From Octopus vulgaris (lineage: Eukaryota): a DNA stretch of 64,000 nucleotides. Both the position numbers and the translations under genes were made by a program. Shown piece after piece: positions 3,340 through 41,977 of the stretch (position 1 is its first letter; each line of letters opens with the position of its first letter). The notes beneath the pieces are model-generated. The model was not told the origin of the DNA, searched no databases, and saw only the letters and a list, made by a program, of their open reading frames with translations. Location of the stretch: assembly GCA_951406725.2 (NCBI GenBank), contig OX597824.1, positions 76,136,001 to 76,200,000 of the forward strand. The letters are read 5' to 3'.

Positions 3340-3380
<41 letters not shown>

Positions 3381-3599
3381 TCAATATAAGGGTAGCAAAA
3401 AATTCAATAGAAATTTTTATCGCCACCAGCGGTCCAGTGAGAAAGAGAAAATAGTCACAGACTATATATATAATTTCAACAATATTAAGGAATGGCCCTG
3501 ATAGGCCATTCGACTCACTAGAAAGAGCAGCCAAGACTCAAACCGCTAAATAGTAGTAATTCAGAAATCAAAGGAAAATTAAAACATTTACCCTAATCA

Positions 3600-3707
3600 T
3601 CCTTGGACAATGCATTGTTTCGACGTACTTTTTGGCAGACTAGCCTAATTAAATTAAATTTAATTTAATCAAGTCAATCTACCACTGGCTTGTCTCATCG
3701 GCAAGGA
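3600..3707 (-). ncRNA. Second, inverted copy of the same hammerhead fold
   Basis: Essentially the reverse complement of 4175-4282, including the CCGAUGA variant. Confidence 0.75.
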
Positions 3708-4174
3708 GGTCAGGAGGAATAAATATTCCACGAGGCAGCTTCATCGATGCTTCGGGAATATATACTCTAAATTTTCAAAATCTACCGTAATCGCGCCAAC
3801 GTATCAGCAGCAATTTTGAATTACTACTATTTCTGAATTACTACTATTTAGCGGTTTGAGTCTTGGCTGCTCTTTCTAGTGAGTCGAATGGCATATCAGG
3901 GCCATTCCTTAATATTGTTGAAATTATATATATATAGTCTGTGACAATTTTCTCTTTCTCACTGGACAGCTGGTGGCGATAAAAATTTCTATTGAATTTT
4001 TTGCTATCCTTATTTTGATTAATTAATGATTTTTTGACTAATTCTGAAATTAAATCAGCAGTTTATATTTGCTGCTGATAAGTTGGCGCGATTACGGTAG
4101 ATTTTGAAAATTTAGAGTATATATTCCCGAAGCATCGATGAAGCTGCCTCGTGGAATATTTATTCCTCCTGGCC

Positions 4175-4282
4175 TCCTTGCCGATGAGACAAGCCAGTGG
4201 TAGATTGACTTGATTAAATTTAATTTAATTTAATTAGGCTAGTCTGCCAAAAAGTACGTCGAAACAATGCATTGTCCAAGGA
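4175..4282 (+). ncRNA. Type I hammerhead ribozyme fold, core variant CCGAUGA, extended stem II
   Basis: Stem I TCCTTG (4175-80) pairs with CAAGGA (4277-82); core CCGATGA 4181-87; stem II closes GAC..GTC; GAAA 4261-64; stem III ACAA-TGCA-TTGT; GUC cleavage triplet 4274-76. Confidence 0.75.
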
Positions 4283-5485
4283 TGATTAGGGTAAATGTTT
4301 TAATTTCCTTTGATTTCTGAATTACTACTATTTAGCGGTTTGAGTCTTGGCTGCTCTTTCTAGTGAGTCGAATGGCCTATCAGGGCCATTCCTTAATATT
4401 GTTGAAATTATATATATATATATATATTATATATATAAACATACATAGGACGGGCTTCTTTCAGTTTTCGTCTGTCAAAGCTTTAATCGGCTCGAGGTTA
4501 TAATAGAAGATACCTGTCCAAGTTCACCCGCAGCGGAATTGAGACCGTGACCATGTGGTTGGGAAGCAACATTCTTACCCCATAGCTACACCTCTATTTT
4601 CTGAAATTTAGTCTTTTGTGGTTTAGCCCCAGGTCAGCCTTAACTCAGCGGCCAATGATCAAAAGTATTCCAGCCAGCTACGAGCGTGTTATCATATTTC
4701 CTCACAAATTGTATGTAGAACTGCGTCATCCAATCTGACTTTCTGCACAGATGCTTCGTTATATTCTTGCTGTTATTATTTTTTTAACCTTAGGTTAATC
4801 CTAATCAAGCACAGTTGTGATCAAATGCAATCTGGATGCAACCATCCCGTCTTTTCACACGGTTTATAACATAAAAAAGAATTTTTTTTAAAGATTAGAT
4901 TTCATTTGACACAGATTTAGTTACTATTTCTAACATAACACATGGCCGTATATAGAAACCCTCGCATCTCATTGGCTCCGTTGTATCTAAATATTTTGTC
5001 GACACTGATTTGGCCGACGCCATATTTGCTGTTGATAACTGACTTCTTAGATTAAAAGGATGGAAGCTTCTTCATGAGTTGGATGTAAGTGCTGCAACAT
5101 CGATGGAAGAAGTGAGTGAATCGCAAGGGGTGGGATTATGTTGAAAAATAAAGTATCTTGGTCTACCTAAGAACTTTTCAGTCGACCCTCGTATAAGGCC
5201 TAGAATCTGAATAAGAAATGAAACAAGAATAACAAAGAATAACAAAGGATTTCACTTGTGTGCAGGGAGCATTAGTGTGGGATGTGTGGAGAGTCATGAG
5301 GGGGTGTGGGCGTTGAAATCCCCAAGTATGATGGCTTGAGAGAGAGGAGAAGCGAATAGAAGGTTTTACTGCAGTAAATTCGGTCAAACAGTTGAAGGGT
5401 TGTTGCCGGCGGTTTGAGGAGTTCCATCAGCAATAGAAGGAGCAGAGGCGATATGTATCTTTTATATATATATATACATTGCACA

Positions 5486-15719: not shown

Positions 15720-18120
15720 TTTTCTTTAAACTGAAATACAGTCGAATTAAACCCCTAAACCACATACACAAATCTGTGTCGGACACAAATATCCATACCA
15801 GTATATTTATCGTACTGATTTCATCGTTGTTTCCCATTTTCTTTAGACTGAAGTGCCCTCAAATTAAATCCCCAAACCACATACACAAGTCGGTGTCGGA
15901 CAAAAATATCCCAGAATATCAATCGTACCGACCTCATCCGAGTTTCCCATTTTCAGTGCAGTCGGACTGAACCCCGAAACCACATACACAAATCTGTGAC
16001 TGACAAAAATATCCATACCGGAATATCAATCGTACCGACCTCATCCGAATTTCCCATTTTCAGTGCAGTCGGACTGAACCCCGAAACCACATACACAAAT
16101 CTGTGACGGACAAAAATATCCATACCGGAATATTTATCGTACAATCGTTTTCTTTAGACTGAAGTGCCCTCAAATTAAATCCCCAAACTACATACACAAG
16201 TCAGTGTCGGACAAAAATATCCCAGAATATCAATCGTACCGACCTCATCCGAGTTTCCCATTTTCAGTGCAGTCGGACTGAACCCCGAAACCACATACAC
16301 AAATCTGTGACGGACAAAAATACCCATACCGGAATATCAATCGTACCGACCTCATCCGAATTTCCATTTTCATCGGACTGAACCCCGAAACCACATACAC
16401 AAATCTCTGTCGGACACAAATATCCATGCCAGTATATTTATCGTACTGATTTCATCCTTGTTTCCCATTTTCTTTAGACTGAAGTGCCCTCAAATTAAAT
16501 CCCCAAACTACATACACAAGTCAGTGTCGGACAAAAATATCCCAGAATATCAATCGTACCGACCTCATCCGAGTTTCCCATTTTCAGTGCAGTCGGACTG
16601 AACCCCGAAATCACATACAACAAATTTATGACGGACAAAAATACCCATACCGGAATATCAATCGTACCGACCTCATCCGAGTTTCCCATTTTCAGTGCAG
16701 TCGGACTGAACCCCGAAATCACATACAACAAATTTATGACGGACAAAAATACCCATACCGGAATATCAATCGTACCAACCTCATCCGAGTTTCCCATTTT
16801 CAGTGCAGTCGGACTGAACCCCGAAATCACATACAACAAATTTATGACGGACAAAAATACCCATACCGGAATATCAATCGTACCAACCTCATCCGAGTTT
16901 CCCATTTTCAGTGCAGTCGGACTGAACCCCGAAATCACATACAACAAATTTATGACGGACAAAAATACCCATACCGGAATATCAATCGTACCAACCTCAT
17001 CCGAGTTTCCCATTTTCAGTGCAGTCGGACTGAACCCCGAAATCACATACAACAAATTTATGACGGACAAAAATACCCATACTGGAATATCAATCGTACC
17101 AACCTCATCCGAGTTTCCCATTTTCAGTGCAGTCGGACTGAACCCCGAAATCACATACAACAAATTTATGACGGACAAAAATACCCATACTGGAATATCA
17201 ATCGTACCAACCTCATCCGAGTTTCCCATTTTCAGTGCAGTCGGACTGAACCCCGAAATCACATACAACAAATTTATGACGGACAAAAATACCCATACTG
17301 GAATATCAATCTTACCAACCTCATCCGAGTTTCCCATTTTCAGTGCAGTCGGACTGAACCCCGAAATCACATACAACAAATTTATGACGGACAAAAATAC
17401 CCATACTGGAATATCAATCTTACCAACCTCATCCGAGTTTCCCATTTTCAGTGCAGTCGGACTGAACCCCGAAATCACATACAACAAATTTATGACGGAC
17501 AAAAATACCCATACCGGAATATCAATCGTACCAACCTCATCCGAGTTTCCCATTTTCAGTGCAGTCGGACTGAACCCCGAAATCACATACAACAAATTTA
17601 TGACGGACAAAAATACCCATACTGGAATATCAATCGTACCGACCTCATCCGAGTTTCCCATTTTCAGTGCAGTTGGACTGAACCCCGAAATCACATACAA
17701 CAAATTTATGACGGACAAAAATACCCATACCGGAATATCAATCGTACCAACCTCATCCAAGTTTCCCATTTTCAGTGCAGTCGGACTGAACCCCGAAACC
17801 ACATACACAAATCTCTGTCGGACACAAATATCCATGCCAGTATATTTATCGTACTGATTTCATCCTTGTTTCCCATTTTCTTTAGACTGAAGTGCCCTCA
17901 AATTAAATCCCCAAACTACATACACAAGTCAGTGTCGGACAAAAATATCCCAGAATATCAATCGTACCGACCTCATCCGAGTTTCCCATTTTCAGTGCAG
18001 TCGGACTGAACCCCGAAACCACATACACAAATCTGTGACGGACAAAAATATCCATACCGGAATATCAGTCGTGCCGATCTCATCTGTGTTTCCCATTCTC
18101 TTTTCACTGAAAGTACGAAG
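15720..18120. repeat. ~108-bp satellite array, homogeneous core (~16560-17800) with divergent variant units at both ends
   Basis: GACCTCATCC at 16561 and 16669 (period 108); 36-codon periodic ORFs on both strands. Confidence 0.95.
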
Positions 18121-20104: not shown

Positions 20105-20630
20105 ATCAAGGAATGAAATTTTGAGGGAGCGGTCTAGTCGATTAGATCGACCCCAGTACGCAACTGGTACTTAATTTATCGGCCCTGAAAGGATGAAAGG
20201 CAAAGTCGACCTCGGCGGAATTTGAACTCAGAACGTAGCGAGAGACGAAATACCGCTAAGCATTTCGCCCGGTGTGCTAACGTTTCTTATTTCTTTATTG
20301 CCCACAAGTGGCTAAACATAGGGGGGACAAACAAGGATAGACAAAGGGATTAAGTCGAGTACATCGACCCCAGTGCATAGCTGGTACTTAATTTATCGAG
20401 CCCGAAAGGATGAAAGGCAAAGTAGACCTTGGCGGAATTTGAACTCAGATCGTAAAGATAGACGGAATACCTATTTCTTTACTACCCACAAGGGGCTAAA
20501 CACAGAGGGGACAAACAAGGACAGACATAGGTATTAAGTCGATTACATCGACCCCAGTGCGTAACTGGTACTTAATTTATCGACCCCGAAAGGATGAAAG
20601 GTAAAGTTGACCTCGGTGGAATATGAACTC
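20105..20630 (-). mobile_element. SINE family A tandem cluster
   Basis: Reverse complement of the 184-bp unit repeated about three times. Confidence 0.85.
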
Positions 20631-30228: not shown

Positions 30229-30652
30229 TAAGGCGGTGAGCTGGCAGAACCGTTAGCACACCGGGCGAAATGCGTAGCCGTTTCTTCGTCTGCCGTTACG
30301 TTCTGAGTTCAAATTCCGCCGAGGTCGACTTTACCTTTCATCCTTTCGGGGTCAATTAAATAAGTACCAGTTACACACAGGGGTTCGATGTAATCGACTT
30401 AATTCGTTTGTTTGTCCTTGTTTGTCCTCTCAGTGTTTAGCCCCTTGTAGGTAGTAAAGAAATAGGTTTTTCGTCTGTCTTTATGTTCTGAGTTCAAATT
30501 CCGCCTGGTCGACTTTGCTTTTCATCCTTTCGGGGTCGATTAGATAAGTACCAGTTATGCAATCGGGTTGATGTAATCGACTTAATCCCTTTGTCTGTCC
30601 TTGTTTGTCCCCTCTACGTCTAGCCCCTTGTGGGCAATAAGGAAATAAGAAA
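30229..30652 (+). mobile_element. SINE family A, head plus two tandem units
   Basis: Same organisation as 1217-2370. Confidence 0.85.
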
Positions 30653-41487: not shown

Positions 41488-41977
41488 TTGGTGATACTAG
41501 TTGTGGGTTCTAGCTCGCTCTGATACTGAGTTGAGTTGGTGCCTTCTAGTATCTCAAAATTCAATATATAATCATTTATGATTATAGTATTCTACGCTGA
41601 AGAGAAAAGAAGTTTGGGTAACGTAGAATTATTTAATATTTAATTCTTATGCTTTCCTAAAAACTTGATTTCGAAACGTGCGTCCGTAGATAACTTAAAA
41701 TTGTATGATAGATTGCCGTCAATTCATTCTCTCTTACCTGTTTGTGTCTGCCTTCCAATTGCTGTGTTTTTTACTGAGATCTCCTTTTTAGTAGAAGAAA
41801 TAGCTATAACTCTTTGACTGCTATTTCTAAATTCGGTCTGTGGTAAGGCAATTCGTTGCTAAACCCTTTATTGCTTAGTATTACTTAAATTTTCCTCGAA
41901 TGAGGCTTTTACATGCCGAAGACTACTTGGTGTAATTGATAATTATTCCAAATTAATTAATTTCACCCTTCATTATT

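Follow-up and report, generated by a model that had tools for sequence, protein, structure and literature searches.

The hammerhead motif at positions 4175–4282 of the window (the whole stretch of 64,000 nucleotides of Octopus vulgaris DNA analysed here) belongs to a lineage in which core position 4 is fixed as C. It lies in a non-coding repeat that, with a probability of roughly two in three as judged from sequence, is copied by the reverse transcriptase (RT)-endonuclease of a Penelope-like element (PLE) and still cleaves itself. Self-cleavage of the C4 form is probably slow and would determine where the copied RNA begins at its 5' side. The features concerned are:

3376–3840, minus strand: inserted segment A, 465 nt, head to head with segment B
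3600–3707, minus strand: type I hammerhead, copy A, with the same C4 core; inverted twin of copy B
3829–4420, plus strand: inserted segment B, 1.22 units (3829–3936 repeats 4313–4420)
3937–4420, plus strand: full repeat unit, 484 nt, 34.5% G+C, without an ORF
4175–4282, plus strand: copy B of the type I hammerhead, with a C4 core, recognized by motif and covariation
4175–4180/4277–4282, plus strand: stem I, 6 bp
4181–4187, plus strand: core CCGAUGA (C4 is 4182, U7 is 4185)
4188–4260, plus strand: stem II, 4 bp (4188–4191/4257–4260), with a 65-nt insert (4192–4256)
4199–4248, plus strand: 22-bp hairpin inside the 65-nt insert, arms 4199–4220/4227–4248, five G–U pairs
4261–4264, plus strand: GAAA
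4264–4275, plus strand: stem III, 12-nt palindrome
4276, plus strand: C17, with the cut predicted at 4276/4277 from established hammerhead numbering

The hammerhead motif and its stems

Stem I, the CCGAUGA core, GAAA, the palindromic stem III and C17 are all found where the original prediction had placed them, and the inverted twin at 3600–3707 also has C in place of U4, as had been stated for both copies in the window. The proposed 73-nt stem II is correct as a span, but the true stem II has only 4 bp and closes a 65-nt insert. It reads GACG/CGTC in the family and GACA/CGTC in the window copy, where 4191 and 4257 form an A–C mismatch; a stem II weakened in this way occurs in 7 of 101 C4 copies. 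All of the conserved core is present (C3, G5, A6, G8, A9, G12, A13, A14, A15.1–U16.1 and H17). Position 4 departs from the strict CUGANGA consensus, which has U there, and fits the wider descriptor CYGANGA. This descriptor is in use for searches and C4 is treated as an accepted natural degeneracy (PMC13481778).

No Rfam model matched the window at its gathering score, nor was any hammerhead family found at E ≤ 1 in five related loci, probably because the long loop insert defeats the Rfam hammerhead models. The assignment consequently rests on motif and covariation. Stem I is the open stem and all three stems are kept by covariation, with five two-sided pair changes between subfamilies that are spread over the three stems. 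Those at I.1, I.4 and III.3 fall inside the C4 clade, the one at I.3 inside U4 and the one at II.4 between C4 and U4. Among 101 copies of the C4 clade, I.1 is G–C in 75 and A–U in 24, I.4 is U–A in 73 and C–G in 24, and III.3 is A–U in 68 and U–A in 28. The III.3 change preserves the palindrome, and the pairs around the UGCA loop are kept in 97–98 of the 101. Every one of these changes happened once and was then passed on through a subfamily. In 62 distinct rows 95% of the cells pair, compared with 23–48% in slid controls; as relatedness inflates the shuffle control, events were counted and not cells.

The whole motif folds with a z-score of −5.1 on the plus strand and −1.3 on the minus strand. 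For the isolated motif the minimum-energy prediction mispairs the core, and the active fold lies about 3 kcal/mol higher for U4 and C4 alike. Stem III can take two forms: a hairpin of 4 bp closed by UGCA within a monomer, or a 12-bp duplex between the two strands of a dimer. Alone, the 12-mer is predicted to be unfolded as a monomer and to reach −15 kcal/mol as a duplex, which makes it plausible in these models that the hammerhead would cleave as a dimer through its palindromic stem III.

The hairpin in the stem II insert

The hairpin pairs at 21 of its 22 positions as had been described, with 16 Watson–Crick pairs, five G–U pairs and one A–C mismatch (4208/4239). Its apical part is a run of TTTAA/TTAAA pentamers and its length varies in steps of 5 nt. 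The predicted fold reaches −20.7 kcal/mol on the plus strand (z = −8.1) against −6.4 kcal/mol on the minus strand (z = −1.9). C4 copies have an insert of 65 nt with a median of six G–U pairs, while U4/C7 copies have 52 nt and one G–U pair. The ribozyme strand gives the more stable fold of the insert in 101/101 of the former and in 58/66 of the latter. Variation of the hairpin within the C4 clade consists mostly of one-sided exchanges between G–U, A–U and G–C; full two-sided changes are rare. The strand asymmetry of all 101 C4 copies, together with the one-sided exchanges, upholds the earlier suggestion of selection at the RNA level, with the scarcity of two-sided changes noted. Our likeliest guess is that the hairpin is an accessory insert acting at the RNA level, by docking a protein or by controlling folding. 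Long loop 2 inserts are also present in several other hammerhead families, which makes them a general habit of this genome.

The G–U pairs were also considered as fixed A-to-I editing. In the initial set private A>G changes in the hairpin outnumbered T>C changes (19 versus 9, p = 0.006). This was not replicated in 88 newly fetched copies, in which A>G was seen at 6/867 hairpin positions versus 15/2,283 in the background (p = 0.54) and the contrast of A>G with T>C was 6 versus 3 (p = 0.13). The editing explanation is not supported.

Position 4 is fixed by lineage

The tabulation of position 4 across genomic homologues that had been proposed shows C4 to be fixed in one lineage and U4 to be present in its sister subfamilies. 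In the 2.8-Gb genome, exact patterns gave 79 matches with CCGATGA and three with CTGATGA; for U7 with a G-closed stem I these patterns cover spacers of 55–75 nt, and short U4/U7 copies are missed. A subfamily with an A–U closing pair has CCGATGA in 26/26 matches, and the sister pattern has 94 matches with CTGACGA and one with CCGACGA. Selection by the 3' half alone yielded 57 copies: 20 with CCGATGA, six with CTGACGA, one with CTGATGA, four with other single changes and 26 without a detectable 5' half.

A midpoint-rooted tree of 182 rows, built after masking positions 4 and 7, places 103 C4 copies together with a single U4 tip in one clade with a support of 99 (100/98 in another tree). The view of C4 as a natural core variant therefore stands, as C4 is fixed in the whole clade (103/104 copies). 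The clade is nested among U4 subfamilies under the midpoint root, and U4 is also what the relatives furthest away have, at about 75% identity; from this we infer that C4 is derived and arose once. End branches are short in both the C4 and the U4 groups (median 0.017), so both were amplified recently.

The repeat unit and its insertions

The exact matches to the 3' half of the hammerhead put the genome-wide copy number at no fewer than 243. No long open frame belongs to the 484-nt unit, which is a non-coding repeat. The z-score of its fold is −5.45 for the ribozyme strand, against −3.33 for the opposite one, and as a circle 69% of it is paired. The sequence records that match the unit are contigs, none of them registered as RNA, and the four contig sets compared with it carry no information on strand, level or circles.

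The anatomy of the insertions was derived from 157 segments at 112 loci, after segments touching a locus edge had been dropped. Two sites account for 143/157 of the 3' ends, with 78 near 4420 (E1) and 65 near 4023 + 484 (E2), and 113/157 segments run into TA. The 5' ends are scattered. Head-to-head pairs carry one 3' end of each kind in 38/43 cases. Some loci have two full hammerheads 468–486 nt apart; the longest segment has 774 nt (1.6 units) and 0/157 exceed this, though longer arrays may exist beyond the sampled loci. In the window, segment B begins 36 nt behind the predicted cut of the previous unit and ends at E1 (4420) in a TA run, and segment A ends at E2 (equivalent to 4023, 87 nt beyond E1) in the TA run 3341–3377. 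Being one among the 38 pairs with two different ends, A and B probably represent a single insertion event, a head-to-head retrotransposition. The local duplication that had been thought to follow a mutation is this pair. The two 3' ends (a 'tail'), the inverted truncated partner and the microsatellite target are marks of the PLE type.

The sequences at E1 and E2 (4393–4420 and 4003–4023) have a loose motif CCTTA...TTG..AAT in common, and a conserved hairpin at 4370–4391 precedes E1; motif and hairpin are possible priming signals. Three near-identical loci on one contig (L169–L171) contain the hammerhead portion 4168–4275 only, ending just before the cut site. A copy of U6 snRNA lies about 400 nt from one insertion (L006:2313–2421, minus strand).

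The 5' ends of long copies

Long copies mostly start 4–42 nt behind the predicted cut of the previous unit. In the first set, 22 copies extend at least 440 nt upstream of the first cut, and 13 of them stop in the interval 440–490 nt upstream, at 4282–4314 of the previous unit, where 21% would be expected (p = 1 × 10⁻⁴); this interval was chosen after looking at the data. With the interval fixed beforehand, a replication sample of 18 re-fetched loci plus short loci gave 9/14 (p = 6 × 10⁻⁴), with ends at 4281–4319. Split by core, the pile-up comprises 13/18 C4 copies and 8/17 U4 copies, plus one unassigned copy. No 5' end falls exactly at 4277, the nearest being 4281, and a smaller cluster of stops is seen at 4257–4259, the base of stem II. 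The stops follow the position in the unit for both start sites and not one circle length. The remaining 14/36 long copies extend beyond the predicted cut, which means that templates that are uncut, circular or jumped are used too.

The pile-up suggests cleavage in vivo. It is also possible that it stems from a transcription start near 4280, which would look identical. Most simply, the template would be linear, with a 5' end made by hammerhead cleavage and with its downstream hammerhead left intact. The source locus would contain more than one unit and be transcribed, and the upstream hammerhead would cut after C17. Slow, partial or dimer-dependent cleavage, the last through the palindromic stem III, would leave the downstream copy intact. 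The PLE protein would then nick (TA)n DNA, and cDNA would begin at one of two internal positions, which lie 144 and 231 nt behind the cut site that stayed intact, and would halt early or run off near the cut 5' end. Finally, two cDNAs, one from each start site, would join head to head.

Cleaving or inactivated

C4 could also mark a largely inactivated ribozyme whose fold is kept for binding of the PLE protein, with the pile-up produced by a transcription start or a stalled RT. The substitution is indeed costly in vitro. According to PMC3088659, U4C strongly lowers activity there, yet leaves enough in vivo for the infectivity of a viroid, the variant being that of Ambros and Flores (1998) as cited there. 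Pairwise mutagenesis of another hammerhead (PMC9901934) likewise found low activity for all single and double core mutants except a C3–G8 swap. Cleavage was also dispensable for insertion in vitro in the one reconstituted PLE, that of an anole, whose RNA gave no reads ending at the cut site (PMC11167929). PMC8557442 describes as unclear what hammerheads contribute to PLEs that bear an endonuclease, and PLE hammerheads are also treated in PMC6765202. The spread of C4 over three hammerhead families of the genome could mean relaxed selection, and the stops at the base of stem II indicate that structure can stall copying. Against inactivation, all other core positions are fixed across subfamilies that are only about 75% identical, and no more than 4 nt separate the predicted cut from the edge of the pile-up. 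A simple stall is disfavoured by the stop rate at equivalent positions, which is 9/33 on the first pass and 22/36 on the second (pooled Fisher p = 0.005). We regard an inactivated ribozyme as unlikely.

Comparison with retrozymes and PLEs

Non-LTR retrozymes, as described in PMC7229834 and 10.64898/2026.07.22.740005, resemble the unit in their type I hammerhead with a 6-bp stem I and a 4-bp stem II. They are also ORF-less, low in G+C, self-paired and found together with autonomous PLEs, as here, and tandem, an arrangement to which the loci with two hammerheads may correspond; our unit has no protein frame, a type I hammerhead per unit and a G+C content under 45%. If the repeat were a classical member of this class, both hammerheads would cut and a 484-nt circle would be the template of the RT. 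Its in part tandem, highly paired form (69% as a circle), the agreement with the description in PMC7229834 and the 14 long copies that cross the second cut site favour this, but the longest of the 157 segments has only 1.6 units, and from either start site the stops depend on the place in the unit and not on one circle length. We consider a circle as the general template quite improbable; circles may serve as a minority template. Retrozymes further differ in length (about 170–400 nt in the same sources, compared with 468–486 nt for the unit here), and what sets our repeat apart is the C4 core, a loop 2 insert of 47–66 nt, observed insertions of no more than 1.6 units and 5' ends that point to a linear, cut template. 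As to C4 being a private mutation of one decayed copy that was then locally duplicated, the window copy does have a weakened stem II (A–C at 4191/4257), but the 79 + 26 exact C4 matches genome-wide against three U4/U7 and the single C4 clade refute it and leave it practically no chance.

PLEs and pLTR hammerheads (PMC4209133, PMC8557442 and PMC11167929) share with the repeat partial tandems, an inverted 5'-truncated partner, two 3' ends, AT-rich or (TA)n targets and a palindromic stem III. The tail measures 87 nt here and 30–40 bp in PLEs according to these papers. Unlike PLEs, the repeat has no ORF, and its stem III of 4 bp is long enough for a monomer. No ORF with RT and GIY-YIG is joined to the repeat; PLE fragments near three insertion sites are separate 5'-truncated insertions, and the PLE fragments downstream of two loci do not themselves carry the 484-nt repeat.

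An abundant young PLE family of the genome (L088–L097) has open frames of 899–907 aa and 3.62-kb tandems that are 99.9% identical. Its two 3' ends are separated by about 155 nt, and it has a TA pattern like that of the unit and its own long-loop U4 hammerhead in the repeat. The 899-aa frame is presumably that of a PLE, given its RT and GIY-YIG motifs. Searches of Pfam and the PDB with the protein returned nothing, and it has Atlas look-alikes of which a minority of members carry GIY-YIG and RVT_1. At the DNA level the family shows no similarity to the unit, and it was not accepted as the autonomous partner. Taken on sequence features, the element is likely to be PLE-dependent and retrozyme-like, and to be mobilized by a PLE protein.

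C4 in other hammerhead families

Genome-wide, a minimal family of type I hammerheads counts 7,958 exact C4 copies and 3,184 exact U4 copies. It is characterized by a bulged A after A9, a 4-bp stem II and an ACGU stem III (for example L333–L342 and L093:2622). Among the copies listed first, C7 has changed to T in two of 100 C4 rows and in 10 of 100 U4 rows; with more decay in the U4 rows, U4 is probably an older subfamily here and not decayed C4. C4 is also found in 4/5 matches of a second long-loop family (L210–L214) that is unrelated in sequence. Further families with long stem II inserts were observed, some with both CTGACGA and CCGATGA members.

A contact between U4 and N7 may be part of the hammerhead core; the literature that we searched gave no confirmation of it. 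In the 484-nt family positions 4 and 7 change on one branch, with 94 U4/C7, one C4/C7, 105 C4/U7 and three U4/U7 exact matches. Compensation of C4 by U7 was rejected as a general rule, as this is one branch only and C7 is present in 98 of the 100 minimal-family C4 copies listed first; C4 thus occurs without a need for U7.

Other features of the window are:

1283–2375, 20288–20630 and 30280–30647: three arrays of a 184-bp unit
15914–18097: 108-bp tandem array, 20 copies
41592–41689, plus strand: another type I hammerhead, with a canonical CUGAAGA core and a loop 2 insert of about 60 nt

The last of these has GUC at 41682–41684 and is flanked by TA runs.

Significance

C4 as a tolerated variant is already known; its fixation by lineage in an animal retroelement appears to be new. 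The original reading as a natural variant holds, and what it had missed are the repeat element, the U4 sister subfamilies and the prior knowledge of C4 tolerance. No C4 core appears in the text of PMC4209133 or in the one searchable supplement of its two. In the literature that we searched, neither the fixation of C4 in hammerheads of animal retroelements nor a 5'-end pile-up behind a hammerhead cut is reported, although Lunse et al. (2017) and supplements may already list C4 for PLE hammerheads. Compared with the viroid U4C, for which PMC3088659 gives the identical core substitution, C4 is here fixed in expanding animal retroelement lineages, with later compensatory stem changes and with thousands of C4 copies in a second family.

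The weight of the finding lies mainly in the 5'-end evidence and in the scale of C4 in the genome. CUGANGA descriptors with short loops miss such motifs, and 71% of the minimal family (7,958/11,142) is C4. The matched U4 and C4 sister subfamilies are a natural pair for gauging how much activity is needed, and the replicated 5'-end pile-up is genomic evidence on the role of hammerheads in PLEs.
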